Below the pieces are notes generated by a model, which was given only the letters and a program-made list of their open reading frames with translations, was not told where the DNA came from and did no database searches. Shown piece after piece: positions 721 to 28,255 of a DNA stretch of 32,000 nucleotides. The translations under genes and the position numbers were made by a program. Every line of letters begins with the position of its first letter. Within the stretch, counting starts at the first letter, position 1. The stretch comes from Methanopyrus kandleri AV19 (lineage in GTDB: Archaea; JAADCQ01; Methanopyri; Methanopyrales; Methanopyraceae), in NCBI RefSeq assembly GCF_000007185.1, contig NC_003551.1, forward strand, positions 60,001-92,000. The letters run 5' to 3'.

Positions 721-1100
721 CCCGGCACCCAGATGTATTTCTTACCGGCCTTGTACACCGCACCGCCGAGCTTCTTCATGTGACCGAGTTGTGCACCACC
801 GCGTTTCGCCCTAGCGACCTCCTTGAACTGCTCCACTTTGAGTCCGGAAGGGGTGCGGTAGATCTTCGTGACGGTAACCTTACCCGTGGTAGTCTTGGTG
901 ATGATAGTGGCCTCCGACGTTTTCGGACTGAGGATCTTGGTGAGACCGTAGCTGGAGGACATGGTGATGATGAACGCTAGGGCGAAAACCATCGCCGCGT
1001 CGAACAGGTTGGCGACACCGGTCAGTGGGTCGTCATCGTTGTCACCGCCGTCCAGGAACCTCCTACGACGCCGTCGTCTCAGATACCGGGGCAACGTCAT
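717..1100 (-). CDS. ExbD/TolR-like single-pass membrane protein (DUF2149-like)
   Basis: 127 aa. Arg-rich N-terminus and one TM segment (GVANLFDAAMVFALAFIITM), with an Asp (codon 1001-999) at the TM entry as in ExbD/TolR/MotB. Beta-rich C-terminal domain of about 75 aa. 4-nt overlap with the upstream ExbB-like gene. DUF2149 resemblance is from memory. Confidence 0.6.
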   Translation of the reverse strand: MTLPRYLRRRRRRRFLDGGDNDDDPLTGVANLFDAAMVFALAFIITMSSSYGLTKILSPKTSEATIITKTTTGKVTVTKIYRTPSGLKVEQFKEVARAKRGGAQLGHMKKLGGAVYKAGKKYIWVPG

Positions 1101-1705
1101 CCCCCGAACTCGCGTTGGAGTATAGTCTCAGCCAGGAATTCGAGATCCGAGACGTCCTTTCGGTACCATCTAGATCTGAACAATGTGATCACGTAACAAG
1201 CTCCAGCGGATGCCAGACCGACTACCGTGGTCGCGAACGCCGTGATCAGAGACGTCGCTAAGCCCGCGATGTTACCTTTAGCCAGCTGCTCCAATCCCGG
1301 TCCCAAGGGGATCAGCGTCCCCATCAGTCCCAACATGGGACCTAGACGCACGACAATCCTCGTCCTACTGACTTTGCTAGCCAGGAAGTTTTCGAGGTTC
1401 TCCAGCTCCTTTTCGACCTTCAAACTGGCCTCGTCCGCCGAATCGGACTTTTCGACGATCTTCTCGACTCTCCTCAGGAACTCCGAGAAGTGGGGAGGAA
1501 GTCGCTTCACGTCCGGAAACTTATCTGCGATCTGTTCGAGATCCTTCCTGGTAAACCTGGGCCGGTAGGCCACCTCACGGAGGAATATAGCCAGCTCCAT
1601 CAGAGAGTAAGCCAAGAACAGCAGCAACAGTACTATCGTCGGGTAAAACAACAGCTCCATTACCACGTACAGAGCCTGAGTTATCGCCGTCGCGATGCTA
1701 ACCAT
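1097..1705 (-). CDS. MotA/TolQ/ExbB-family proton channel protein
   Basis: 202 aa with three hydrophobic segments. The C-terminal half carries the family signature RLGPMLGLMGTLIPLGPGL ... LITAFATTVVGLASAGACYV. Long charged helical loop between TM1 and TM2. Confidence 0.75.
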   Translation of the reverse strand: MVSIATAITQALYVVMELLFYPTIVLLLLFLAYSLMELAIFLREVAYRPRFTRKDLEQIADKFPDVKRLPPHFSEFLRRVEKIVEKSDSADEASLKVEKELENLENFLASKVSRTRIVVRLGPMLGLMGTLIPLGPGLEQLAKGNIAGLATSLITAFATTVVGLASAGACYVITLFRSRWYRKDVSDLEFLAETILQREFGG

Positions 1706-2895
1706 TCGATCACCGCCCTGATGATATCGTCGATCGGGTTATCCGGTGGGTAGTTTCCTCGTGAAGCCTTGCGCACCGCCCATAGGTACCCGAACGCCAT
1801 CAAAGCCAGGAACAGTAACGCCCATGGGCCTATTTTCGAAGGGCTCGGAAGGGCCAGCTTGAGTTTAGGTGCTCGCTTCCATAACGGATAGGCCCACGCG
1901 ATAATCCCCGTGATCACGAAAAGGAGTCCTACTAAGTTCTCGAGGCCACTAAGGGCCACGGCCGGGGGAACTTTGAGGACCTCGATAACCGCATCGGCGA
2001 CGATCAAGGTGGCGTACGCCGTCGAAACGAAGCAAGTCCAGAGTACCAAGGCGGCTTGGGTGACGTTAAGGGCGCCTATCTCGGCGTACATGGCGATCGA
2101 TAGGGCCACTCCGGTCAGGCAGATCGGACACGGAACGGCCACGACGAATGCTCCTAGCTTAGAGAGATCCTTCGCTGAACCTTCTACCGCCCACTTACGG
2201 GCTATGAATATTCCCAATCCGATGAGAAACAACCCCAGCAAGGCGTGACCGAGGAGAGCGTACCTCTGCATGGCGAGCGCCGTTTTCATGAACTTGGAAA
2301 CCAGGTGACTCAGGCCTATTATCGCCGGTATTAGTATCCCGGAAAGCGCTGCGATAACCATCGCCCCACGACGTAACTGGAAGCCCGCGAACCCTATTCC
2401 TAACCCCGTCTTCAACCCCACGATGAACACGAAGAACGCTATCGCAAGCGCGTAGATCGGGTTATCGGCGAAGGCCGGAACGATCATCCACGAGGTCAGC
2501 GCGGCTACGATCACCGAAGATGTCACGGCGAGGAGGGTGACTATTTTGAAGGGTGATACGCCGAGATCACGTGAGATGCGATAAGATGGATACACCAGAG
2601 CGACGGAGGACGCCGCGATAGCCCCGGCGGTCACGTCGAGAAGGCCGACGAGGAGGGCGACTCCGGAAAGCGCTGTCCCTTCCAACACGGTGCGAATGAC
2701 CTCACGGCGCTTTTTACGGGCCCCTAACACGCGTGTCAGCATTACCCCTGTGCCGACTCCGATGGCGGCCGCGGCCATCCCGTAAACGGCCCCGTAGGTT
2801 AGGGCTTCCGACACACCGACGGAGTGGTACCTGAGCATTAGTGCCGCGCTGGCACCTAGATAGGTGGTGAAGGCCGCGATCACACCGTGGAACAC
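1681..2895 (-). CDS. Polytopic membrane protein, putative transporter (DUF2162-like) with intramembrane CPxC motif
   Basis: 404 aa with about 10-12 hydrophobic segments. VPCPIC motif (Cys codons 2130-2128 and 2121-2119). Overlaps the downstream ExbB-like gene by 25 nt. DUF2162 assignment is from memory, unverified. Confidence 0.6.
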   Translation of the reverse strand: MFHGVIAAFTTYLGASAALMLRYHSVGVSEALTYGAVYGMAAAAIGVGTGVMLTRVLGARKKRREVIRTVLEGTALSGVALLVGLLDVTAGAIAASSVALVYPSYRISRDLGVSPFKIVTLLAVTSSVIVAALTSWMIVPAFADNPIYALAIAFFVFIVGLKTGLGIGFAGFQLRRGAMVIAALSGILIPAIIGLSHLVSKFMKTALAMQRYALLGHALLGLFLIGLGIFIARKWAVEGSAKDLSKLGAFVVAVPCPICLTGVALSIAMYAEIGALNVTQAALVLWTCFVSTAYATLIVADAVIEVLKVPPAVALSGLENLVGLLFVITGIIAWAYPLWKRAPKLKLALPSPSKIGPWALLFLALMAFGYLWAVRKASRGNYPPDNPIDDIIRAVIEWLASRRR

Positions 2896-3591: not shown

Positions 3592-3867
3592 TTATGTGTG
3601 GGCGTGGACGTAGATCCAGCTGTTGTTACCCTCGTCGGTGTGCTCAGTCACGGTGTAGCCGACGGTCCCGTAATACAGGGCCGTGAGTAACTTACCGACT
3701 TTCCGCTCGACTCGATCTCCCTCGTCTAGGATGTGCTCGTCGTCGAAAAGCACGTCAAACCACAGGAGGAGCTCGTCGTAAGCCACTGTCTGAGCGTACT
3801 CGCCCATTCCCAGGAACAACCGCCCGTCTTGGAACATTTCCGTTACTATCTCGCCTATCCTACTCAC
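3592..3867 (-). CDS. Small acidic hypothetical protein
   Basis: 91-aa ORF. Its GTG start overlaps the helicase TGA stop (GTGA). An alternative ATG lies at residue 11. No motif recognised. Confidence 0.45.
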   Translation of the reverse strand: MSRIGEIVTEMFQDGRLFLGMGEYAQTVAYDELLLWFDVLFDDEHILDEGDRVERKVGKLLTALYYGTVGYTVTEHTDEGNNSWIYVHAHT

Positions 3868-6137
3868 CCCCTGGCACGTCCGGGTGCTAAGCGGACCAGG
3901 TCTAAGTAGGAAGCCACTTCGCGCAGATTGTTCGGCTTTATCAGTGCGCCGCTTCTCTTGACGTGCTCAATGAACCTGCGGTACGTCGGATGGCTGGAAA
4001 GCGTGCCGGAATCTCCGATACAAATGAGTTTCCGCCTAGGCCTGGTGATCGCGACGTTCAGTCTCCTCATGTCCCTTAGGAACCCTACTTCACCCTTAGG
4101 ATTGCTTCGGACGAAGGACACGATCACGGCTTCCTTCTCTCGACCCTGGAACCCGTCGACTGTGTTCACCTCGACGTCGCCGAGCCCGAGTTCGTCGAGG
4201 GACTTCGAAATCAGGTCCACTTGGTCGTCGTACGGACTGATCACGGCTAGATCCTCCTGAGACAACCCCTGCCGAACCAGTTGTTCCGACAGAAAGGCGA
4301 CTATCGCGGCTTCCATCGGATTTTCACGGGATTTGGATCCGGGACGGCGTCGCTCCCTCCGCAAACGCTCGGGTAAGCGCGAGGTGTCCACGAACCCCAG
4401 CGGCTCCTTGGGGTGTAGGACGTCAGCCCAGGGTCTGCCGACTTCGGGATCGCCGACACCTAAGTCCTCGAGCGTGTGACGACGGACGCTCGAGTGGGCC
4501 TCGAGCTTCCCGTTGTAAAACTCTCGGTTCGGGAATTCCATGATGTTCTCGTGCATCCTGTACTGCACTCTCAGCATCCTGGAGAGCTTCGGGTGCTTTT
4601 CGATCAAACGCTCGAAGAGCGTGCGAGAGAGCTCCGGCTGGGCCTCTTCACTGAGGATGGTCGGGGGCAACTGCTTGTGATCCCCGGCCATGATGAACCT
4701 CTTGGCCCGAGAGATCGGAATGAGCGCTGAAGGTTCCGTGGCTTGCGATCCTTCGTCGACTACGGCGACGTCGAACTCGATATCTTCGAGGAACTCCAGC
4801 CCTGCACTGGCGTTCGTAGTGACCACGACTTCAGCCTCCTCTAGTACTTCCCGGACGGCACGCTCTTCCAGTCGCTCCGCCTCCTCGAAGAGTTTCTGGA
4901 CTTTCCTGTTGATGTGGATCCACTTAGCCATGCTCTGAATTACGCGTGGTGGGACCCCGCGGGCTCCCTTGCCTTCCCTCGCAAGGTAGAGTATGGTCTC
5001 GTCGGACATCCCCCGACGCCACCTCGGCACCGGGCGCTGGTACCGGTCACGCTTCTCGATGAGCCTGTAAGCGCGCTCCCGGAGACGCTCCGCCTTCCTG
5101 TACAGTGGGTGGTTTTCCACGATCGCGCTAAGTGTCCGCTCCTTCAGTTTCTTGGAGACACGGGCCGGATGTCCGACCCTAACGGCCTCCACACCACGCT
5201 CTACCAGATATTCCAGGATGTTGTCCGCTGCGACGTTGGACTCGGCCGTCGCGAGGACCTTGTTACCACGCCGGACCTCTTGAACGATCACCTCGGTGAT
5301 TGTCCGGGTCTTACCAGTACCCGGAGGGCCGTGAATTAGGAAGAAATCCGGCGCCCCTAGTGCGTGTTCTACGGCCTCCCGTTGGGAATAGTTGAGGTCA
5401 GTATCGACGAAGTCCACGTCTATAGGCTCCGCGTCGCTCGGATTCTTAAGTCCGATGATCGTGTTCCTGAGTTCTCGGAGTCTACCCTCAGCGTGTCTGA
5501 TCCGTTCTAGCGCCTCCATCATACGCTGGAAAGTTACATCGTTAGCGTATAGGTCGATCCTGATCCCCTTACCCACGGCCCACTTGGGTGGAGGACTGTC
5601 GAAAGCCACCGTAATCGAGCGCTTGGTCTTCTCCACGACGGTTCCCGTGAGATCGCTCTTCAGTGGATCGCCGCGACTCACGAGGACCAGATCGCCCACG
5701 GATATTTGCGTATCTATCTCTTTAGACCGGCCGTACTTCACCAGGTAGTAACCTCCGACCTCCCGACCTGCCCTCGTACCGCGCAGACCGAGTACTGCCC
5801 TCCCCTTCTTTTCACGCTCCTTGCCTGAGAGTTTCCTGATTTCCTCTTCCATCGCCTTCATCTCGGCTTCCCGCTCCAGCTGGACTAGCCTCTGGAACCT
5901 CTTGACGTAGGCGTCTACTACCTTGATCTCCTCCGATTCCTCCCTCGTAGGCTCCCTCACGTCAGCATGTCTTAGGAGACGCTGAGCCGCACGAGGCTCG
6001 ACTCGGCACAGCGCGGCTCGGTTGGCCAGCCAGATTTTACCGACTTCGTGGGGCCTCACACCGCGTGAGAATAGCGTATCCAGAACGTCTTTCGGAGAGT
6101 CCCCCGGACTAAACCCTTCGATCAACACTTCCTTCAT
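3864..6137 (-). CDS. Superfamily I DNA/RNA helicase, Upf1/IGHMBP2(Smubp-2)/Hcs1-like
   Basis: Walker A LIHGPPGTGKTRTI, motif II VVDEGSQATE, and VDGFQGREKEAVIVSFVRSN, which is typical of the Upf1-like AAA_11/AAA_12 architecture. N-terminal beta-barrel-like region as in IGHMBP2. The ORF track extends to 6227. I prefer ATG 6137, which is preceded by GAGGGTG plus a 5-nt spacer and avoids overlap with the divergent gene. Confidence 0.9.
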   Translation of the reverse strand: MKEVLIEGFSPGDSPKDVLDTLFSRGVRPHEVGKIWLANRAALCRVEPRAAQRLLRHADVREPTREESEEIKVVDAYVKRFQRLVQLEREAEMKAMEEEIRKLSGKEREKKGRAVLGLRGTRAGREVGGYYLVKYGRSKEIDTQISVGDLVLVSRGDPLKSDLTGTVVEKTKRSITVAFDSPPPKWAVGKGIRIDLYANDVTFQRMMEALERIRHAEGRLRELRNTIIGLKNPSDAEPIDVDFVDTDLNYSQREAVEHALGAPDFFLIHGPPGTGKTRTITEVIVQEVRRGNKVLATAESNVAADNILEYLVERGVEAVRVGHPARVSKKLKERTLSAIVENHPLYRKAERLRERAYRLIEKRDRYQRPVPRWRRGMSDETILYLAREGKGARGVPPRVIQSMAKWIHINRKVQKLFEEAERLEERAVREVLEEAEVVVTTNASAGLEFLEDIEFDVAVVDEGSQATEPSALIPISRAKRFIMAGDHKQLPPTILSEEAQPELSRTLFERLIEKHPKLSRMLRVQYRMHENIMEFPNREFYNGKLEAHSSVRRHTLEDLGVGDPEVGRPWADVLHPKEPLGFVDTSRLPERLRRERRRPGSKSRENPMEAAIVAFLSEQLVRQGLSQEDLAVISPYDDQVDLISKSLDELGLGDVEVNTVDGFQGREKEAVIVSFVRSNPKGEVGFLRDMRRLNVAITRPRRKLICIGDSGTLSSHPTYRRFIEHVKRSGALIKPNNLREVASYLDLVRLAPGRARG

Positions 6138-6183
6138 GGTTACACCCTCGGTGGACACTACATCCTCAGGGGGGCACCGTCCA

Positions 6184-6945
6184 GTGAGACCGTTTCTGAG
6201 CCGGCTGCGCGCCCTTATCTCGTACATAAAGAAAACGTACGATCGCGTTGCGGTAGCCTACTCCGGAGGTACTGATAGCTCGGTACTCCTGTACGCTGCT
6301 GTCAAGGCGTTAGGACGGAAAAACGTGGTCGCCTGCACGGCGTGTTTGCCGTACGTAGTGAACGTGTGTCCACCGACTCCTATGGATGTGAAGCAAATCA
6401 GGATCCGCCCCGACGTGGAGGATGTCCTCCGAGAGGGTAGAGACGAACACCCGTGTTACCTGTGCAAGCGGGCAATTTACGAAGCGATACACGAAACCAT
6501 CGGAGGTGTGGATGGAGTGCTGGACGGTACCAACGTCTCGGAATTAACCAGGGGCCGCCCTGGCCTCCGAGCGTTGTACGAACTCGACGTTGACGTCCCG
6601 ATGATCAAGTGTGGACTCGGTGATCAGACAACGTCCGTGCTCGCCGCCTACCTGAACCTCCGAGCACGCTCCGGAGCGTGCTCACTCGTACTGTCTCCGG
6701 AGTGGCCCGACGTCGAAGTGAACGACCCAGGAAAGCTGAACCGGACAGCCCGACTGCGCAAGCCACAGTCGGAAAGGTGGTCCCTTTCGGAGTGTCTGGA
6801 GTTCACGATCCATGCGCCGTTACCCGAAAGACGAAGGGAGAGATACGAGTGTGTCCGTCGAGGGGACGCGCTAGTGTTCCGAGTACTGAGTGGAAAAGTC
6901 ACCGAAGCCTTAGCTTCGTACTTCCGAGAGTGCTGGAACGTGTAA
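6184..6945 (+). CDS. PP-loop ATP pyrophosphatase, LarE-like (ATP-utilising enzyme of the PP-loop superfamily)
   Basis: VAVAYSGGTDSSVLL PP-loop (SGGxDS), HPCYLCKRAIY motif and LDGTN. The listed ORF starts at 6022 but that part is antisense to the helicase. In-frame GTG 6184 leaves a typical helix of about 24 aa before the PP-loop. Confidence 0.75.
   Translation: MRPFLSRLRALISYIKKTYDRVAVAYSGGTDSSVLLYAAVKALGRKNVVACTACLPYVVNVCPPTPMDVKQIRIRPDVEDVLREGRDEHPCYLCKRAIYEAIHETIGGVDGVLDGTNVSELTRGRPGLRALYELDVDVPMIKCGLGDQTTSVLAAYLNLRARSGACSLVLSPEWPDVEVNDPGKLNRTARLRKPQSERWSLSECLEFTIHAPLPERRRERYECVRRGDALVFRVLSGKVTEALASYFRECWNV
6223..6236 (-). promoter_or_regulatory. Candidate TATA-like element (minus strand GTTTTCTTTATGTA) upstream of the helicase
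   Basis: A/T-rich patch that contains the ATG at 6227 heading the longest helicase ORF. This suggests that ATG is promoter sequence rather than a start. The leader to ATG 6137 would be about 65 nt. Confidence 0.25.
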
Positions 6946-6956
6946 GAATTCGTACC

Positions 6957-8126
6957 TCACTCGATCGAGATGTCTATTATCAGAGGGTAAAACCGGGAAG
7001 ACTTAGCCTCGTTGAAGTCGGAGACTGGAAGAGGGGCTAGGATAGCCCGTTTCACGAACTCTACTAACACGGGTTCCACTTGAAACGTCCTGTGCACCTC
7101 GCCACCGACCATCGGGACTTGGTTCTCCAGAGTAGTGCGGAGGAGCTCACCGAGTTCTCTTGGATCTTCGGAGACTATCGGCACGATCTTGACCTTGATC
7201 TCAGACTCCAGGGTACGGACCACACGCTTGAACCGACGATCCTTGAGACAGCTTACCACGATGAGGTAATCGAGTTTCAGTTCCCGGAGGAACTTCCACT
7301 GGGTCCACTGGATAGCGTGCTTTCCACCGCGTGGGTCCCTCCATAACGGCTTCCCCTTGGTGAACTTCCAAAGATAAGAGAAGTCTAGTGCAGGAGCATC
7401 TAGCATCGACGATAGGTACACACCGTAGAGTGCGGAGATCGTGTCGGTGACTGCGACAGCGACTGGTGCTTGGTCCCAAAGCTCATCGGCAACCGCTGCC
7501 TCGACACCCCACGAGCACACGTTCGGCATTCGCTTCCAACCTCGAAGGGGTTCGGCTCCGACGTGACCGCTTTTGTATCCCATCACGGCGATCGATTCGG
7601 GTGCCAGAGACCGAAGCGCATCGGCGGAATACGGTGAGGCTACCTGATATCCCGAAGCCTTCGGGGGGAAACCCTCGAGAAGGTCGCTCGTCGGTCCCAC
7701 GGCGTTGTGAGAGGCTAAGAGGAGGGGGAGCCGGACCGCCGTGAGGTCTTCCAGTATCTTACGCGTCTTCCTGCGGAGGATTCCCGCTAGGCATAATGTC
7801 TTGCATATCTCGTACAGTGGGTACGCCACGACGGCCGCGGTGCCCTTCCTCGTAGAGTACATCTCCAGGAACGCCTCGGCGGAGACCCCGCTATGTTCCT
7901 CGGCCGATGATTCCTCATGAGATTCCCTCGACGGTTCTTCCTCCACTTCATCTTGTCTCGCCTTTTCCGAGCCCTCTTCCGTGCTGCGGGAGCTGCTCTC
8001 CATTGGTCCCCCGATAGTCTCCGCGACTGCTGTTGGATCTACTTCGGTCGCGTCGATCGTTTGCCTTATCTTCATCAGCCGGTCCCGTACGACCTTACTC
8101 TCTCGACGGAAGATCCTACCGATCAT
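6957..8126 (-). CDS. Hypothetical protein with acidic Ser/Glu-rich N-terminal region
   Basis: 389-aa ORF, 6 nt downstream of nadA on the same strand. Residues about 40-85 are low-complexity acidic (SSRSTEEGSEKARQDEVEEEPSRESHEESSAEEH). No family recognised. Confidence 0.5.
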   Translation of the reverse strand: MIGRIFRRESKVVRDRLMKIRQTIDATEVDPTAVAETIGGPMESSSRSTEEGSEKARQDEVEEEPSRESHEESSAEEHSGVSAEAFLEMYSTRKGTAAVVAYPLYEICKTLCLAGILRRKTRKILEDLTAVRLPLLLASHNAVGPTSDLLEGFPPKASGYQVASPYSADALRSLAPESIAVMGYKSGHVGAEPLRGWKRMPNVCSWGVEAAVADELWDQAPVAVAVTDTISALYGVYLSSMLDAPALDFSYLWKFTKGKPLWRDPRGGKHAIQWTQWKFLRELKLDYLIVVSCLKDRRFKRVVRTLESEIKVKIVPIVSEDPRELGELLRTTLENQVPMVGGEVHRTFQVEPVLVEFVKRAILAPLPVSDFNEAKSSRFYPLIIDISIE

Positions 8127-9938: not shown

Positions 9939-10016
9939 CCCGGCCGATCATCCGTCTCCCGAGTGGTGGCCTTCTTCATCGCCCGGGGGTTAGCGGAGTG
10001 TGGGTAGAATTGAGAC

Positions 10017-10024
10017 GTAAATAC
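10017..10024 (+). promoter_or_regulatory. Candidate TATA-like box (GTAAATAC)
   Basis: The only A/T-rich patch in the divergent intergenic region. It is centred about 29 nt upstream of ATG 10049, which fits a leaderless or short-leader archaeal transcript. Confidence 0.3.
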
Positions 10025-10048
10025 GGCCGGGATCGCGGTCACGCACCG

Positions 10049-10933
10049 ATGTCGGAGGAGGACGTGCTGCGGGTCAAGCCCAAGGAACGTCCCGGAGTGG
10101 TGTTCGTAACCCCGGATGGTCGAGTTCACGCGGACTTAGGACACGTGAGGATGGTGGAAGACACCGTGACGCTGCACTCCGATCCCACGGAGCCCCCGGG
10201 TCCGGACAACCCATCCGTGATCGTGCCGGAGCACGTGCTGGCGGCACTTTACGTTTCGGGATACGCCGGCGCGGTAGTCGAGATCCGTGGTGATCCGGGA
10301 CACGCGGAGCACGTGTGGAGGGCCGATTGTTACCTGAGGGAGGCCGTGGAGGAGTTGGGTGGTCCAGCCGACCCACCCGAGATGGGGGAGCCCGCGGCTA
10401 AAAGGGCGTTCATCCGCGAAGGAGAAGCCCCGTCTACGGTTAGGAACGTGGAGGGAAGGATCGAACCGGCGGAAGAGTTCGAAGTGCGTGTAGGTGGTGA
10501 GGAGGTTTCGGTTCACGATCTCATGACCGTCAGACGTGGGAACGTGAGCAACAAGACCCCCGAGCACGCGGGCCTAGACGTGGTAGCAGACGTCGCGATG
10601 TTGGCGGGGACGGCGTGTGCTAGGGTGGAGATATCACGACCCACGGAGGTAACCTCGATACATCCTACCGATCTCTACCTGGCGACGGCCGCAAAGCACG
10701 GAATTCGCGTCTGTTCGCTCAACGTGGGGAGGATGCGGGGCGCCGTAAACTTGGAGGAGGGGGAGACCGTCCGTGTCGGCACCGATCTCAGGTACGAGGT
10801 TTGCATCACCGAAGAACCGGTAGCATCTGAGATCAAGATAGGTGACGTAACGCTGGTCCGCGAGGGAGGTAAGTTCCGGGTCGTAGAGCCTGGAACGGTT
10901 CGGCTCGGAGATGAGGTGGTGGAAGTAGGTTGA
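10049..10933 (+). CDS. LpxC-fold (UDP-3-O-acyl-GlcNAc deacetylase-like) putative zinc deacetylase with extra C-terminal beta domain
   Basis: By-eye alignment to E. coli LpxC in three places. [13 protein letters not shown] matches [28 protein letters not shown] matches [26 protein letters not shown] matches SGHALNNKLLQAVLA. The ORF track starts at 9998; ATG 10049 is preferred because of TATA spacing. Confidence 0.55.
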   Translation: [294 protein letters not shown]

Positions 10934-11757
10934 TCGACATTTCGTCCCTGTCATGGGCCGTAGCGCTCGGAGTAGTTCGAGGTCTCTACGTGTTCGCGGG
11001 ATCGTTCATCGCGGCGGCCGTCTACCGGTACGTGGCGGAGGAGAGGATCCGAATGACGACCTCCGCCTTCATGGGTCTTTTAACCGCCGGGTTCGCGGCC
11101 GGCCCCAAAGAACTCACGGCACTCACGTACCAAAATCCGAACGTGGAGATGATCGCGTGGGCTATCGCCACCTTGTTCGCGATACCCGCCAGGACCTACG
11201 GGGACGCTATCGGTGAGAGGATTCTCCGGGCGAGGATACGAGCATCGATGAACCCCAGAACTAAGGTTTACAGGCTCCCCGAGAACCCCAACGAGATCAA
11301 GGATATCCCCGGAGAACCACCCGCGCCCATGGAGGTCAAAGAACGGATCGCGGGACGCGAGTACGAGTTCCCTCGAGGCACTCCTAAGGAGGAAGTTGAG
11401 CGAGTGATCAAGCGAGATTTGGAGAGCGAGACCGGGATAGGTCGCGCCGTAGTCCGCGTGCGAAACGGCGACGTCGAGGTACTCGTAGCGGGTGCGAAGC
11501 CCCCGGTCTCGCACACGCTCCCTCCGGACAAGGTCGCCGTTTCCGTGGAACCACTAGGCGGCGCCATCCACATCGGAGAGGGAGATCGTGTACGTGTGTT
11601 CGTGGACGGTCGCGAGCTGGGTGAAGCGGAGGTATGGCGGCGGGTAGATGATCGGGTAGTATTGGTGATGGAAGAACGCACTGCCGAAGAGCTGCTGAAG
11701 GAGATCACTCAAGGCAAGCAGGTGTCCCTTATGGCGGTGAGAGGGGAGGGAAGTTGA
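10930..11757 (+). CDS. Membrane protein (3 N-terminal TM segments) with soluble C-terminal domain
   Basis: 275 aa. TTG start overlaps the upstream TGA (TTGA). Hydrophobic segments are at residues about 8-32, 45-60 and 72-90. The remainder is charged and soluble. No family recognised. Confidence 0.5.
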   Translation: MIDISSLSWAVALGVVRGLYVFAGSFIAAAVYRYVAEERIRMTTSAFMGLLTAGFAAGPKELTALTYQNPNVEMIAWAIATLFAIPARTYGDAIGERILRARIRASMNPRTKVYRLPENPNEIKDIPGEPPAPMEVKERIAGREYEFPRGTPKEEVERVIKRDLESETGIGRAVVRVRNGDVEVLVAGAKPPVSHTLPPDKVAVSVEPLGGAIHIGEGDRVRVFVDGRELGEAEVWRRVDDRVVLVMEERTAEELLKEITQGKQVSLMAVRGEGS

Positions 11758-13088
11758 AGCGTGAGCGCGTTCGGATCGAGGGAGGCTCGATCAGGGTAGA
11801 CGGACCGTCCCGGGCGCGAGTAATTCGAGGTGAAGCGACCACGAACAAAGGTACCGAAGTGAGTGAAGGCGAAGAACTCGTGATCAGGCGTGGGGAGCGA
11901 CTGACGCTCACCACCGACTCGGAGCTCGAGCTGGAGCTAGTCCTGGGAACCGGTGCCGGCTACTCGGTCGAAGAGGACGGCGTCGAAATACCATCGGACT
12001 GGAAAGAGTTGGCCGAGGAGCTGGCCGATCACGGTGGAACGCCGGTTTGCATGGTGATCGGTCCTCAGGACTCCGGCAAGACGACGCTAGTTACCTTCAT
12101 CGCCAACGAGCTCGTGGAGCGCGGGCTCAAGGTAGGTATCGTCGACGCCGATGTAGGGCAGTCGGATGTCGGGCCTCCGGCGGTCGTCTCCTTAGGTATC
12201 GTCGAGGATACCGTCCACGACCTCTCCGAGGTAGAGATGAGACACGGGTACTTCGTCGGGTCGATCACCCCATCGGGTCACCTACTCCAGACCACCGTAG
12301 GGACTCGAAGGATGGTAGACCTCGCACTAGCTGAAGGGACGGATGTCGTGCTCATCGATACCTCGGGGATGGTTCACGGCGGACCTGCTAGAGCCCTTAA
12401 ACTCCACAAGGTCGATGCGATCAGACCCTCACACGTGGCGTTCCTGGACCGTGACGGTCAGGTGTCACACATCAAGCGTATGGTGAAGTCCTTGAAGTAC
12501 ATTAAGGTGCACGACCTCGCGGTGCCTGATGCCGTGAAGGACGTCGAACGGAAGGACCGTATTCGACGTAGAGAGCGCGTACTGCGCGAGTTCTTCGAGG
12601 AACGGGAGATCCTGGAGCTCGACCTGGAGGAAGTCTCCGTACAGCGGGCGTTTATAGGAACGGGTGAGCCGGTGGACTTGGAGGAGGAGAGTGAACTATC
12701 CGCACTGATCAAAGCGGTATCCGGTGTCGAACCCGAGATATTGCACGCGGAGAGAGCACCGGATGCCGTTGTTTTGGTCGTTAAAGACCAAGCCGGTCGA
12801 ATCGTGGGACGCGGCGGCCGACATGCCCGAGAGCTTAGGCGGCTGCTTAACGTCCGAGAGTTCGTCGTAGTCAACGAGGAGGAACTTCAGGGAGTGCTGG
12901 TAGGACTGTGTGACGGGGCCGGTGACCTGCTCGGTATCGGCGTGATTCGAGAGATCGACTTCGCCTCCGGAGAACTGAAAGTCGAGGGCAGGTTACTCCG
13001 CGACAGGACGATTCGCGTCGTTCAGCTGGGCTCGCTTAAAGTGGACCCGGAGACAGGGTCTCACGAGCCTATGAACGTACGAGTTTGA
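11754..13088 (+). CDS. Clp1/Grc3-type P-loop polynucleotide 5'-hydroxyl kinase homologue
   Basis: 444 aa. MVIGPQDSGKTTLVTFIANELVERGLKVGIVDADVGQSDVGPP matches the Clp1 Walker A plus DxDxGQ clasp region. N-terminal beta-sandwich-like and C-terminal domains have Clp1 proportions. TTGA overlap with the upstream gene. Confidence 0.8.
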   Translation: MKRERVRIEGGSIRVDGPSRARVIRGEATTNKGTEVSEGEELVIRRGERLTLTTDSELELELVLGTGAGYSVEEDGVEIPSDWKELAEELADHGGTPVCMVIGPQDSGKTTLVTFIANELVERGLKVGIVDADVGQSDVGPPAVVSLGIVEDTVHDLSEVEMRHGYFVGSITPSGHLLQTTVGTRRMVDLALAEGTDVVLIDTSGMVHGGPARALKLHKVDAIRPSHVAFLDRDGQVSHIKRMVKSLKYIKVHDLAVPDAVKDVERKDRIRRRERVLREFFEEREILELDLEEVSVQRAFIGTGEPVDLEEESELSALIKAVSGVEPEILHAERAPDAVVLVVKDQAGRIVGRGGRHARELRRLLNVREFVVVNEEELQGVLVGLCDGAGDLLGIGVIREIDFASGELKVEGRLLRDRTIRVVQLGSLKVDPETGSHEPMNVRV

Positions 13089-13120: not shown

Positions 13121-14119
13121 GTGACGAGAATGTACGTGGGGATCGATCACGGTACCTCGGGGATCAAAGTTGCAGCGTACGACGGTGAAGGAGACCCGGA
13201 GTTTTTAGGCAAAGCACCGAGACGGAAGGTGGCCGAGCGTGGGTTGCTCCGATCCCTCCCCGACGAAGCCCGGAGGGCAGTAGAGGAGGCCGAGTGCATC
13301 TGTCTGAACTATGGGATGGGCGACGCGCTCACGGAGTTCACGCCGCTAGAGGAAGCGGAGGATCTCGGCGTAGGATACGGACTACGTGATACCAGCGGAG
13401 CGGGGCGGGAGTTCGGCGCCGGGAGACGTATGGTCGAGGAGCTGTCAGAGCTCGGCGTTGAGGCCTATCTAGCACCGGGTATTCATCGGGACTTACCGCG
13501 GCTGGACGGGGCATTCCGAGTGTTCTCACACGTAGCGAGCGGTGAGAAGCTGGGAACAGCGAGGCTCGCACTCGAGTTATCCTCCTCGAAGGATATCGTG
13601 GTGTGTGACACAAGCTCGAACACAGTTTCCGTGGTAGTGAAGGACGGCGAAGTAATCGGCGGAATCGACGCGTGCCTCGGCGCTCCGGGCGTATTGCAGG
13701 GACCGTTGGACTTGGAGGCCATTCGCAGGATCGACGCGGGTGAACTGTCGGCCAACGGGGCGTTTTCAACCGGAGGGATCGTTAAGATCGTCAACTGCGC
13801 CGGGGAAGATCCCGAGAGCGCGGTAGAGGAATTCATCCAGAGGTGTGGCAAGGAAGAGAAGGAGTGGCTGGCACGGCTGGTCGCTTGGGAGGTGGCGGGG
13901 TTAGGCGTCGTCTACGACTGCGACGAGGCGTGGATCGGAGGTACGTTGTCGGGAGACGACGAATTCATGGGGGTGCTGGAGAGAGTCCTGAGCAAGGCTT
14001 TTAACAAGGTCGCCGGGCTACCGCCCGAGTCGGCTTCGATGGGACTAGCCCTGATCGCCGCAGACATAGCCTCCGGAGCCCGGTCGGTGTTGGGGGTGCG
14101 AATTTCTCGCCGCCCCTGA
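13121..14119 (+). CDS. ASKHA (actin-like ATPase fold) protein, methanogenesis marker 12 / UPF0285-like
   Basis: MYVGIDHGTSGIKVA phosphate-1 motif at the N-terminus, length about 330 aa. Family name is recalled from memory. The likely true start is ATG 13130 (MYVGIDHG) rather than GTG 13121. Confidence 0.65.
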   Translation: MTRMYVGIDHGTSGIKVAAYDGEGDPEFLGKAPRRKVAERGLLRSLPDEARRAVEEAECICLNYGMGDALTEFTPLEEAEDLGVGYGLRDTSGAGREFGAGRRMVEELSELGVEAYLAPGIHRDLPRLDGAFRVFSHVASGEKLGTARLALELSSSKDIVVCDTSSNTVSVVVKDGEVIGGIDACLGAPGVLQGPLDLEAIRRIDAGELSANGAFSTGGIVKIVNCAGEDPESAVEEFIQRCGKEEKEWLARLVAWEVAGLGVVYDCDEAWIGGTLSGDDEFMGVLERVLSKAFNKVAGLPPESASMGLALIAADIASGARSVLGVRISRRP

Positions 14120-14928
14120 TTTCATACCTGGGGCCGCCAGGCACGTTCACAGAGGAGGCGGCTGAGCGGTTTTCTGAGGAAGAACTTGGGGGAAACGGAA
14201 AGCTCCAGTCTGCCAGGACTATTACCGCGGTTTTCTCACGTGTAGAGCGAGGTGAGGCGGATTACGGTGTAGTTCCGTGGGAGAATTCACTGGAGGGATC
14301 CGTAGGAGAGACTTTGGATAACTTCCTGCATAGGAGCGTACGCGTGTTCGGCGAGCTGGTGTTACCGATCGTGCATGCACTGATGTCCGGATCCGAACCG
14401 GACGACCGTGAACCCGTGGTCTACTCGCACCCCCAGGCGTATGAGCAGGCGCGGGAAACGCTGCGAGAGTTACTCGGTAACCACGAGTTCGTACCCACGG
14501 CGAGCACCGCCGAAGCTGCCAAACTGGCGTCGAAGGAGGGTGCTTACGCTCTAGGTCCACCGAGGCTCGCGGAGCGGTTCGGATTGGACATAATGGAGGA
14601 GATAAGACTGGAAAATAACGAGACCAGGTTCGCGATCATCTCGAGGCGCGATAGAGCCCCGACTAAAGAGGACAAAACATCCGTGGTGTTCTCGGTAACC
14701 GATCGTCCGGGTGCTCTACGTGAGATTTTGGGTATCTTCGCGGATCGAGGTATCAACCTCACTAAGATCGAATCTCGACCCGCGAAGAGAGGGTTAGGAG
14801 ACTACGTTTTCTTCCTGGACTTTGAGGGGCACAGGATGCTCTATCCCGGGTCCGAAGCGTTGGCAGAACTCCGAGAAAGAACGCCGTTTTCCAAGGTGTT
14901 GGGGTCGTACCCCAAGGTTTTCCCGTAG
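14119..14928 (+). CDS. pheA: Prephenate dehydratase (PDT domain + ACT domain)
   Basis: ISYLGPPGTFTEEAA ... ADYGVVPWENSLEGSV (PDT) and TKIESRPAKRGLGDYVFFLDFEGH (ACT, ESRP motif). The conserved N-terminus is encoded at 14119-14313, upstream of the first canonical in-frame start (TTG 14314). The true start codon is unresolved (ATT 14119 or CTG 14116/14128). Confidence 0.85.
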   Translation: MSYLGPPGTFTEEAAERFSEEELGGNGKLQSARTITAVFSRVERGEADYGVVPWENSLEGSVGETLDNFLHRSVRVFGELVLPIVHALMSGSEPDDREPVVYSHPQAYEQARETLRELLGNHEFVPTASTAEAAKLASKEGAYALGPPRLAERFGLDIMEEIRLENNETRFAIISRRDRAPTKEDKTSVVFSVTDRPGALREILGIFADRGINLTKIESRPAKRGLGDYVFFLDFEGHRMLYPGSEALAELRERTPFSKVLGSYPKVFP

Positions 14929-26681: not shown

Positions 26682-27470
26682 TCACTCTTCAACCTGATCG
26701 GGGGCCGGGTCGAGGGAGACGTACCCTTGGGAAGCACAGGCGCGGATGAGGCGCTCCCCTTCGCTTTCATCGAAGAACGGGGGCGCCCAATCCCGCGTCA
26801 CCCGACGGCGTTGGACACCGTCCTCGTTCACGGCCACCCGGTAGGCGAGTATCCCTCGACGTTGCCAGGCCGGGGTTCGTCCGAGGTTGATCCCGAACTC
26901 TCGGTAGAGCAGCTCGTGCACATCGTGCGCCTTCATTCCACGGAGCCGCTCGGCGGCTTCCTTGGGTTTCAGTCCTCGCTCACGCAGCGCCCAGTACGCA
27001 TAGGAGTTCAGGTGATTCCGCCAGGCCTCGTCCTGACGCCACTTGAAGTAGTCCACCAGGTCGTCGTCCGTGAGCACCACGCACCTGGAGTCGAAGGACA
27101 CCGTCTCGCCGGTCGGATCTATCCCGTGGCGCTGTAAGGCCCGGAAGAAGTACGTGGAGGCGCAGGACGCCGATACGGACGTCAACTTTTCGACCCGACC
27201 GGAGAAGGGGACGTTGCCCCGGGGTATGAGCGCGTTAAGCTCGTCGGAGAACGTATAGACGAGTGTGATCCCCAGACCCGCGTCTCGAATCATTCGGACC
27301 GCCGTCTCGGCCATAGCTTCTGCGAACCGTCGGTCGTAGGGCTTCTTGAGGCCTAACCGGCGGGTGAGTTTGGTGAACGCCCTTCCGTCGATCCGCAGAA
27401 CCAGGTGTGTGTTGGGGGGTACCCTAAGGTCCGCGTATACCTCGAGATCACAGGGTTCCACGGGCTTCAA
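26682..27470 (-). CDS. tRNA(His) guanylyltransferase Thg1-like protein (3'-5' nucleotidyl polymerase, TLP)
   Basis: LVLRIDGRAFTKL, KPYDRRF, YTFSDELNALI, FDSRCVVL and YFKWRQDEAWRNHLN match the Thg1 family. 262 aa. 4-nt overlap with nadX. Confidence 0.85.
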   Translation of the reverse strand: MKPVEPCDLEVYADLRVPPNTHLVLRIDGRAFTKLTRRLGLKKPYDRRFAEAMAETAVRMIRDAGLGITLVYTFSDELNALIPRGNVPFSGRVEKLTSVSASCASTYFFRALQRHGIDPTGETVSFDSRCVVLTDDDLVDYFKWRQDEAWRNHLNSYAYWALRERGLKPKEAAERLRGMKAHDVHELLYREFGINLGRTPAWQRRGILAYRVAVNEDGVQRRRVTRDWAPPFFDESEGERLIRACASQGYVSLDPAPDQVEE

Positions 27471-28255
27471 GTGCCCACTCGAATCCCCTCGGTCATCCGC
27501 TCGATCAAAGCCACGGCGGAGTACGCGGCGACGGCGCTCGTCTTTGGGTTATCCGGGAGCGCTTCGTTCCTCAGCTCGAACCGGTACGTACCTGCGCTCG
27601 ACTCAACCTCGATGACGTGCGTGTTGACTGAGACCTCGGGGTCGCAGACGATCCGAACTGTGACCAGTGAGGGGTCGCCTACGGCCAGCGACACGGCGGC
27701 CGCCACGTTGATGTTCTTGGGGAACTTGCGGACGGCATCCCGCACGGAACCTTCGTAGAGTACTGTCCGCTCGGAAACGTCCTTGTTCAGGGCTTTCGGA
27801 GGCTTGATGGTGGTGAGAGTGACCTCTCTCACCCGACCTCGCAGCGCTCGCAGCACGTCTAGACCTCCTACCGCACCGGACGGAACGTGAAGGCGATGTC
27901 CGGTGACTTCCGCGACCTCGCGACATCGACTCAGCAGGCCCTCCTCAAGCACCAGCGCTCCCACGCTCATCACGATCACATCGAACCTCTTCAGCGCGTC
28001 AGGTAAGAGGCTAGCCGCCGCTTCCACGGAGGCGGCCTCGAGCAGCACGTCGGCTTCGGCGCTCATGGCGTCATCTAGGTCGGTAGAGGTATCGCAGTCG
28101 GGGAACCACCGCTCGATGCGTTTGAGCTTCTCCGGGTGACGATCACAGACCAGAACCGGTTCCACCTTACCTTCGAGCCGTCCTTCACGGATCTCCCTCA
28201 ACACCGTCGTTCCGATGCCTCCAGCGCCTACGAGCGCTAAACTCAGCTTCTTCAT
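27467..28255 (-). CDS. nadX: L-aspartate dehydrogenase
   Basis: LVGAGGIGT Rossmann start. PSGAVGGLDVL, IKPPKAL, LYEGSV, FPKNINVAAAV and PDNPKTSAVAAYS closely parallel Thermotoga TM1643 (from memory). Confidence 0.88.
   Translation of the reverse strand: MKKLSLALVGAGGIGTTVLREIREGRLEGKVEPVLVCDRHPEKLKRIERWFPDCDTSTDLDDAMSAEADVLLEAASVEAAASLLPDALKRFDVIVMSVGALVLEEGLLSRCREVAEVTGHRLHVPSGAVGGLDVLRALRGRVREVTLTTIKPPKALNKDVSERTVLYEGSVRDAVRKFPKNINVAAAVSLAVGDPSLVTVRIVCDPEVSVNTHVIEVESSAGTYRFELRNEALPDNPKTSAVAAYSAVALIERMTEGIRVGT

Follow-up and report, generated by a model that had tools for sequence, protein, structure and literature searches.

A probable, highly diverged member of the LpxC superfamily in Methanopyrus kandleri and its relatives

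LpxC acts in lipid A synthesis, and to our knowledge archaea do not make lipid A. The question raised by the locus described here is what a protein with the features of LpxC might do in an archaeon. The locus lies in a 32,000-nt stretch of the Methanopyrus kandleri AV19 genome (NC_003551.1, forward strand, positions 60,001 to 92,000), which we refer to as the window and within which all coordinates are counted. Three open reading frames (ORFs) follow each other there on one strand (9998/10049-10933, 10930-11757, and 11754-13088). The first is the gene of the LpxC-like protein (9998..10933, plus strand), which has a GTG start and encodes 311 aa (AAM01292.1 / Q8TZ64 of M. kandleri AV19, "hypothetical protein"). 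The second, ORF2, and the third, a Clp1 homolog, are its downstream neighbors. We propose, with a probability of about 0.72, that the first gene product belongs, as a highly diverged member, to the LpxC superfamily and occurs in Methanopyri only, and that it is most likely an amide hydrolase acting on a substrate other than the lipid A precursor. Residues are numbered according to the 311-aa form, in which the Glu-His pair is E78-H79 and coincides with the numbers of Escherichia coli LpxC.

Similarity to LpxC and Conservation of the Catalytic Residues

An alignment of the Methanopyri family (eight members) was compared with an LpxC alignment of 27 sequences, which comprised E. coli LpxC (K-12 genome) and 26 relatives of Aquifex LpxC. 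Profile-profile comparison with hhalign matched residues 22-99 of the family to residues 24-99 of E. coli LpxC with a probability of 94.9% (E = 4.3e-8) and placed the Glu-His (EH) pair of the family on LpxC E78-H79. The N-terminal sub-alignment alone reached 96%. The matched segment (10061..10294, plus strand) corresponds to the first half of domain I, to which the Glu-His helix belongs, and is the only one with statistically significant sequence similarity to LpxC. A hidden Markov model (HMM) made from the 27 LpxC sequences matched all eight family members at the same place. Further, the LpxC model of Pfam (PF03331, gathering score 27 bits) recognized the most divergent ortholog, P0007, above threshold (30.4 bits) and a second ortholog, P0005, with 23.2 bits, both matches covering the N-terminal 70 residues only. 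When the family was compared with the single E. coli LpxC sequence, the hhalign match was marginal (E = 0.011), and no significant match to LpxC was obtained when the alignment was forced over the whole length or when the domain II part was used alone. When the protein or the family profile was used to search PDB sequences, no match was returned, even at E = 10. Judged by these comparisons, the LpxC-like protein is a real but remote homolog of LpxC.

In a plain MAFFT alignment of both families, in which the identity to LpxC is 14-22%, six residues share columns with catalytic and metal residues of LpxC. E78-H79 (10229..10234, plus strand, codons GAG CAC) fall on LpxC E78, the general base, and H79, a zinc ligand. 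The motif H190-x3-D194-x3-D198 (10565..10591, plus strand) falls on H238 and D242, both zinc ligands, and on D246, and H222 (10661..10663, plus strand) falls on H265, the general acid or oxyanion stabilizer. In these columns, the equivalents of the zinc ligands (H79, H190, and D194) and those of the acid-base residues (E78, H222, and D198) are kept. All six residues are invariant in both families, where they are among only 11 columns that are invariant over all 34 sequences, although the overall identity within the Methanopyri family is only 48-50%. The EH pair is invariant in the family and in the 26 LpxC sequences. When the sub-alignment of residues 170-235 was compared with the LpxC profile, the HxxxDxxxD motif was the best local match and fell on RHKxLDxIGDL (E = 0.03). 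We consider the motifs alone to be weak evidence, which becomes convincing only together with the significant profile match, the invariance, and the column-for-column alignment.

The original prediction, made from the letters of the sequence, had named the codons of these residues (E 10229-31, H 10232-34, H 10565-67, D 10577-79, D 10589-91, and H 10661-63), and these proved to be correct. Its central claim, a homolog with the LpxC fold and intact catalytic residues, is borne out by the hhalign probability of 95%, the score of P0007 above the Pfam threshold, the six invariant aligned residues, and the retrieval of LpxC by Foldseek with both structure models described below.

Structure Models

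Two structure models were searched against the PDB with Foldseek. The family-only AlphaFold2 model, made from the eight family sequences, was poor, with a predicted local distance difference test (pLDDT) score of 56.8, and the top of its match list was a mixture of pyruvate kinases and LpxC chains (LpxC over ~280 columns, E ~2e-3). The merged model, made from the eight family sequences and 26 LpxC sequences, had a pLDDT of 94.4 and a predicted template modeling score (pTM) of 0.92. Its top 50 matches were all LpxC (E 2e-7 to 1e-5, template modeling score 0.44-0.56). Both models contain essentially the same secondary-structure elements, and the two-domain beta-alpha-alpha-beta sandwich of LpxC, with five strands and two helices per half, is found in the merged model. 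We regard the merged model as corroboration, not proof.

Parts Lost and Gained Relative to LpxC

In LpxC, Insert II (beta-alpha-beta) builds the hydrophobic passage for the 3-O-acyl chain. In the Methanopyri family, this region is mostly removed by two deletions of ~36 and 21 columns (~55 residues), and its remnant is a short helix (residues 175-181). The original prediction of a protein about 50 residues shorter between the motifs agrees with this, as 111 residues separate H79 from H190 versus 159 between H79 and H238 in E. coli LpxC, ~48 fewer. LpxC T191 and F192 are deleted as well, and K239 is replaced by Ala in all eight family members; T191 and K239 contribute to catalysis in LpxC. Among the uridine diphosphate (UDP)-binding residues F161, K239, K143, and K262, only the last is retained, as the basic Arg214, while F161 is deleted and K143 is Gly. 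Additionally, LpxC DGS105-107 reads AEH in the family, and H19 aligns with Ala16, with a His one position off.

Because the parts forming the acyl tunnel and those contacting UDP and N-acetylglucosamine (GlcNAc) are lost, we infer that the substrate is not UDP-3-O-acyl-GlcNAc and is probably no lipid. The same absences speak for the earlier suggestion that the substrate must differ from the lipid A precursor.

The family has also gained parts that LpxC does not have, namely 8 inserted residues ahead of the EH helix, 15 more where the two domains join, and a C-terminal beta-barrel domain without counterpart in LpxC (10706..10930, plus strand; ~residues 237-311, ~75 aa). A beta-rich C-terminal domain had been anticipated from the sequence, and the region is indeed all-beta in both models. 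The barrel has a pLDDT of 80-90 even in the family-only model and is the least conserved part of the protein. The pyruvate kinases that head the Foldseek list of the family-only model match over ~180-200 columns; one of them, 7ueh, matches over 92 columns with a root-mean-square deviation of 3.7 Å and a probability of 1.00. These matches would stem from a resemblance of the C-terminal barrel to the small beta-barrel (B) domain of pyruvate kinase. A barrel shared by the three proteins was also considered; the pairwise comparison of their beta-rich domains was unconvincing (best E = 0.002 over 27 residues), and the idea was dropped.

Proposed Reaction

By analogy with LpxC, H79, H190, and D194 would be the ligands of a divalent metal ion, which is zinc in LpxC, and this ion would in turn activate water. 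E78 is the putative general base, and the part of general acid and oxyanion stabilizer would fall to H222, with D198 orienting it. The bond hydrolyzed would most likely be an amide, so that the enzyme would be a de-N-acetylase or a de-N-acylase, and the C-terminal beta-barrel may have a part in substrate recognition. A Methanopyrus-specific modification of the wall or of lipids is a possible role.

Start Codon, Distribution, and Evolution of the LpxC-Like Gene

Exact database matches identify the three proteins of the locus as Q8TZ64 (AAM01292.1), Q8TZ63 (AAM01293.1), and the product of the re-annotated Q8TZ62 locus. The ORF of the LpxC-like protein had been predicted to start at ATG 10049 and to encode 294 aa. 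The ORF itself stands, whereas the start is to be moved to GTG 9998 (311 aa), because the 17 residues upstream of ATG 10049 are kept in all seven homologs and form the first beta-strand in both structure models, and because the public annotation likewise gives a length of 311 aa. The invariant residues of this N-terminal region are E4, R6, R7, K8, G10, R11, G14, H15, P17, and M18. The protein contains no hydrophobic segment and no transmembrane segment and therefore should be soluble and cytoplasmic. An identity of 48-68% between lineages at constant length indicates that this is a real gene under constraint.

The family consists of seven clusters at 90% identity among 5.8 billion proteins, all from Methanopyrus or related metagenome-assembled genomes (MAGs), and "hypothetical" is the name of the protein in all sources. 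An HMMER search with the family profile among 1.84 billion representatives gave nothing genuine beyond the family and retrieved no LpxC. In the genome collection, four loci carry the family, all of them in MAGs of Methanopyri or "Methanobacteriota"; the contig-derived sequences L004-L007 are near-duplicates of known clusters and add no depth. Literature searches for an archaeal or Methanopyrus LpxC homolog returned nothing relevant. Identity to the most distant lineage is 48-52% for the LpxC-like protein and 60-81% for the housekeeping neighbors; the LpxC-like protein evolves faster than these neighbors, while its length and catalytic residues are kept.

Three long repeat proteins with TPR, BACON, or DUF6622-type repeats (P0008, P0009, and P0010) appeared as relatives with E-values down to 6e-11 and were rejected. 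Their scores are sums of weak repeat matches, and pairwise BLAST found no real similarity. E-values of profile searches on long repeat proteins are to be read with caution.

Neighboring Genes

ORF2 (10930..11757, plus strand) encodes a protein of 275 aa (Q8TZ63) whose N-terminus is hydrophobic and whose C-terminal half is soluble. It is assigned to the "MK-33 family" in UniProt and to DUF8167 in precomputed Pfam data. Of the three transmembrane segments attributed to it by the original prediction, one is a strong hydrophobic segment (residues 8-33), and the other two are only weaker ones (44-58 and 73-88).

The third gene (11754..13088, plus strand, TTG start, 444 aa) encodes a homolog of the Clp1 family of polynucleotide 5'-kinases. 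The assignment as a Clp1-type P-loop protein holds, with 148 bits against Pfam CLP1_P (PF16575, cut-off 26.6 bits, E = 3.6e-43). On the plus strand, the gene encodes a Walker A motif, GPQDSGKTT (12060-12086), a DADVGQ motif (12144-12161), an arginine-rich lid (12549-12578), and a KH-like GRGG loop (12807-12824). The best PDB match is human Clp1 (8hmy, E = 2.7e-8), and there is a weaker match to the KH domain of NusA. In the original annotation of AV19, the protein was a "Predicted GTPase" of 385 aa (AAM01294.1); the re-annotation gives 444 aa, and the TTG start at 11754 is supported by orthologs of 441-445 aa. M. kandleri has been listed with one Clp1-family protein, under "Others", in a survey that reports Clp1 homologs in ~41% of archaea (PMC6777427). 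The features of the protein are as expected for an RNA kinase. A non-RNA substrate, which had been suggested for it, finds no support: Walker A, Walker B, and the lid are retained, and the C-terminus has the weak KH-like match with its GRGG loop. Nothing links the kinase homolog in function to the LpxC-like protein.

One relative of these two neighbors has an unusual structure. In protein P0164 of Methanopyrus sp. SNP6 ("Clp1/GlmU family protein," 643 aa), the C-terminal two-thirds of ORF2 (from ~residue 83) are fused in frame to the whole Clp1 homolog through a short, Gly/Arg-rich linker; a second member of the cluster is 651 aa long. A genuine frameshift fusion, pseudogenization of ORF2, or an assembly error may account for this.

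Gene Order and Overlaps

The predicted TTGA overlaps between the three genes are present, and a purine-rich sequence resembling a Shine-Dalgarno site precedes both of them (10930-10933 and 11754-11757). Only M. kandleri and the P0003/P0004 lineages carry ORF2 between the genes of the LpxC-like protein and the Clp1 homolog. L001 and L002, which represent the most distant lineage, lack ORF2 at this place, and the Clp1 gene comes directly after the LpxC-like gene. ORF2 homologs in L009-L014 are located directly after the gene for indole-3-glycerol-phosphate synthase (IGPS/trpC) with a 4-nt overlap (~4219-5825 in locus coordinates). The ORF2 gene has moved between two positions and is packed tightly against a different upstream gene in each. 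The order of the LpxC-like gene followed by the Clp1 gene is kept in every lineage examined, either with a gap of 2-5 nt or with ORF2 inserted.

This adjacency says little, because a whole 12-kb block is collinear in all relatives and its functions are mixed: helicase, two unknown genes, NadA, and TatD, then, divergently oriented, the LpxC-like gene, Clp1, methanogenesis marker 12, prephenate dehydratase, and POR subunits. Elsewhere in the window, a TTGA overlap at 27467-27470 (minus strand) joins the genes of aspartate dehydrogenase (27467-28255) and a Thg1-like tRNA-His guanylyltransferase (26682-27470), which are unrelated in function. The functional trio of deacetylase, membrane protein, and kinase that the original prediction had read from this arrangement was therefore not upheld as a conserved unit, since ORF2 is placed elsewhere in relatives, TTGA also joins unrelated genes, and the region is collinear in any case. 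Overlap and adjacency reflect the compact, collinear genome of Methanopyrus and no demonstrated shared pathway.

Weighing of the Explanations

Several observations weigh against the assignment to the LpxC superfamily. The protein of the window itself scores only 13.8 bits (E = 0.04) with Pfam LpxC, below the gathering score of 27, and the NCBIfam models gave no match for it. Significant sequence similarity to LpxC is limited to ~80 N-terminal residues, and the match of the C-terminal motif (E = 0.03) is not significant alone. The bare pattern EH...HxxxDxxxD...H is found in ~0.5% of shuffles of the LpxC-like protein and also in four further stop-free stretches out of 448. By construction, the merged model leans toward LpxC, as LpxC sequences are in its alignment, and the model without them is of low confidence. 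The geometry proposed for the metal site and the loss of the tunnel are themselves read from the alignments. Without T191 and K239, finally, the activity could be weak or different.

Chance or convergence, with another fold or merely the general ribosomal-protein-S5-domain-2-like fold, would fit the sub-threshold Pfam score of the window protein, the lack of PDB sequence matches, the failure of the family profile to retrieve any LpxC among the 1.84 billion representatives, and the 0.5-1% expectation for the motif by chance. We nevertheless hold this to be extremely unlikely in view of the profile-profile E-value of 4e-8 with the catalytic EH aligned, the ortholog P0007 above the Pfam gathering score, the other four catalytic residues standing in correct order in an unsupervised MAFFT alignment, and the unbiased low-confidence model that still retrieves LpxC. 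The protein might also have kept the LpxC fold for a binding or structural role and be no enzyme at all, as the missing T191 and K239, the deletion of much of the domain II insert, and the faster evolution (48-52% identity versus 60-81% for housekeeping neighbors) could suggest. Invariance of the six metal and acid-base residues at 48-50% overall identity is not expected without catalytic constraint, which makes this very improbable. If the protein is an enzyme, it could be an N-deacetylase of RNA or nucleosides (N4-acetylcytidine, ac4C, or N6-acetyladenosine, ac6A, as marks abundant in or unique to Methanopyrus RNA) that works with the Clp1-KH RNA kinase and the divergent TatD-type nuclease, and it would then be the first enzyme with the LpxC fold outside lipid A synthesis. 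In favor of this idea, we count that the Clp1 gene follows the LpxC-like gene in every lineage examined, that the TatD-type hydrolase and a superfamily 1 (SF1) helicase whose 1B domain is of the SMUBP-2 type are among the neighbors, that the conserved N-terminus (RRKxGRxxGH) has a strongly basic character, and that N6-acetyladenosine occurs in the tRNA of M. kandleri (PMC6313347). It draws purely on context, however, and this context is itself collinear over 12 kb with unrelated metabolic genes; in addition, Pfam scans detected no RNA-binding domain in the LpxC-like protein. We know of no LpxC relative that acts on RNA. Together with the ~41% of archaea that have Clp1 homologs without an LpxC-like partner (PMC6777427), these points leave an RNA deacetylase quite unlikely. 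In a weaker form of the idea, the protein would be a surviving "minimal" LpxC-type amidase that would show the role of the fold before the acyl tunnel.

In the pathway envisaged by the original prediction, deacetylase, membrane protein, and Clp1-type kinase process a membrane-associated N-acetylated sugar (a pseudomurein precursor or a GlcNAc-bearing archaeal lipid), and the kinase perhaps acts on a non-RNA substrate. In its favor, TTGA overlaps connect the three genes in M. kandleri and the P0003/P0004 lineages, where co-transcription and co-translation are probable, a UDP-sugar is the substrate of LpxC itself, and the Clp1 protein of SNP6 is fused to the C-terminal part of ORF2. Against this stand the absence of ORF2 between both genes in L001 and L002 and its position after trpC in other Methanopyri contigs, the collinear 12-kb flank with its mixed functions (NadA, TatD, marker 12, prephenate dehydratase, and POR) and with TTGA overlaps elsewhere too, the loss of the LpxC residues that contact UDP and GlcNAc, and a Clp1 homolog with ordinary Clp1 motifs and a weak KH-like match. 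Further, pseudomurein is also made by Methanobacteriales, in which the LpxC-like family, confined to Methanopyri, does not occur. This makes a general pseudomurein-related role unlikely, and we judge the pathway as a whole to be unlikely as well. A diverged LpxC-superfamily amide hydrolase with a substrate of its own is the explanation that we prefer.

Other Features of the Window

The prephenate dehydratase ORF (14101-14928, plus strand) has its first canonical start at TTG 14314, which would give 204 aa. Its ~60 conserved N-terminal residues (ISYLGPPGTFTEE...) extend in the same frame upstream of this TTG, as far as the marker-12 stop codon, and homologs of 264-267 aa have a GTG start. In AV19, translation probably begins at CTG or ATT (14116-14121), both non-canonical, with an overlap on the TGA that ends the preceding gene.

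Two ORFs of the collinear block gave no family match. One, of 389 aa (6957-8126, minus strand), has an N-terminal region that is acidic and rich in Ser and Glu; it stays between NadA and the helicase in all Methanopyri lineages and is the fastest-evolving of the block (38-47% identity). If read from its first start codon, the other, of 307 aa (6022-6945, plus strand), shares ~200 nt with the 5' part of the SF1 helicase gene (3864-6227, minus strand). Its real start is probably further downstream, and the gene of relatives at this place encodes 233-255 aa.

At 1097-2895 (minus strand), a gene for a MotA/ExbB-type proton channel adjoins a DUF2162 "predicted transporter" gene with a 25-nt overlap, an unusual pair for a methanogen. 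A PADLOC scan for defense systems yielded nothing relevant.

Significance and Comparison with Known Systems

LpxC is a major target for antibiotics. Most descriptions present it as an enzyme with one function and its own fold. It also serves as a marker for outer-membrane bacteria (PMC3603455). What is new here is a trimmed and extended LpxC variant that is confined to one small archaeal class. A second branch, archaeal and either very old or fast evolving, with intact catalytic machinery and no lipid tunnel, would show that the fold can serve other chemistry, and it would offer a stripped-down scaffold for studying what sets the specificity of LpxC. It points to an amide-hydrolyzing reaction peculiar to Methanopyrus, whose cell-wall, lipid, and RNA-modification chemistry is unusual. 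Two cautions for annotation follow from the locus: orthologs such as P0007 could be mistaken by pipelines for authentic enzymes of lipid A synthesis, and gene overlap in a compact archaeal genome does not count as evidence of a shared pathway.

Among known deacetylases, PIG-L/LmbE/MshB and carbohydrate esterase 4 would be alike in the proposed chemistry, with a metal-activated water, an N-acetyl amide, and His plus Asp/Glu. Their folds are unrelated to that of the LpxC-like protein, which had no Pfam or NCBIfam match to either group. The likeness of the C-terminal barrel to the B domain of pyruvate kinase is one of fold only, with no sequence similarity and no kinase context. In the neighboring Clp1 homolog, the CLP1_P domain, Walker A, Walker B, and the lid of the Clp1/Nol9/Grc3 kinases are all present; in place of the C-terminal domain of eukaryotic Clp1, its C-terminus weakly matches KH domains. 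No lpx genes were found among the scanned ORFs of the window. LpxC itself, for example of E. coli (b0096) or Aquifex aeolicus (1P42/1XXE), is a bacterial enzyme of lipid A synthesis, whereas the relative described here is archaeal and found in Methanopyri only.

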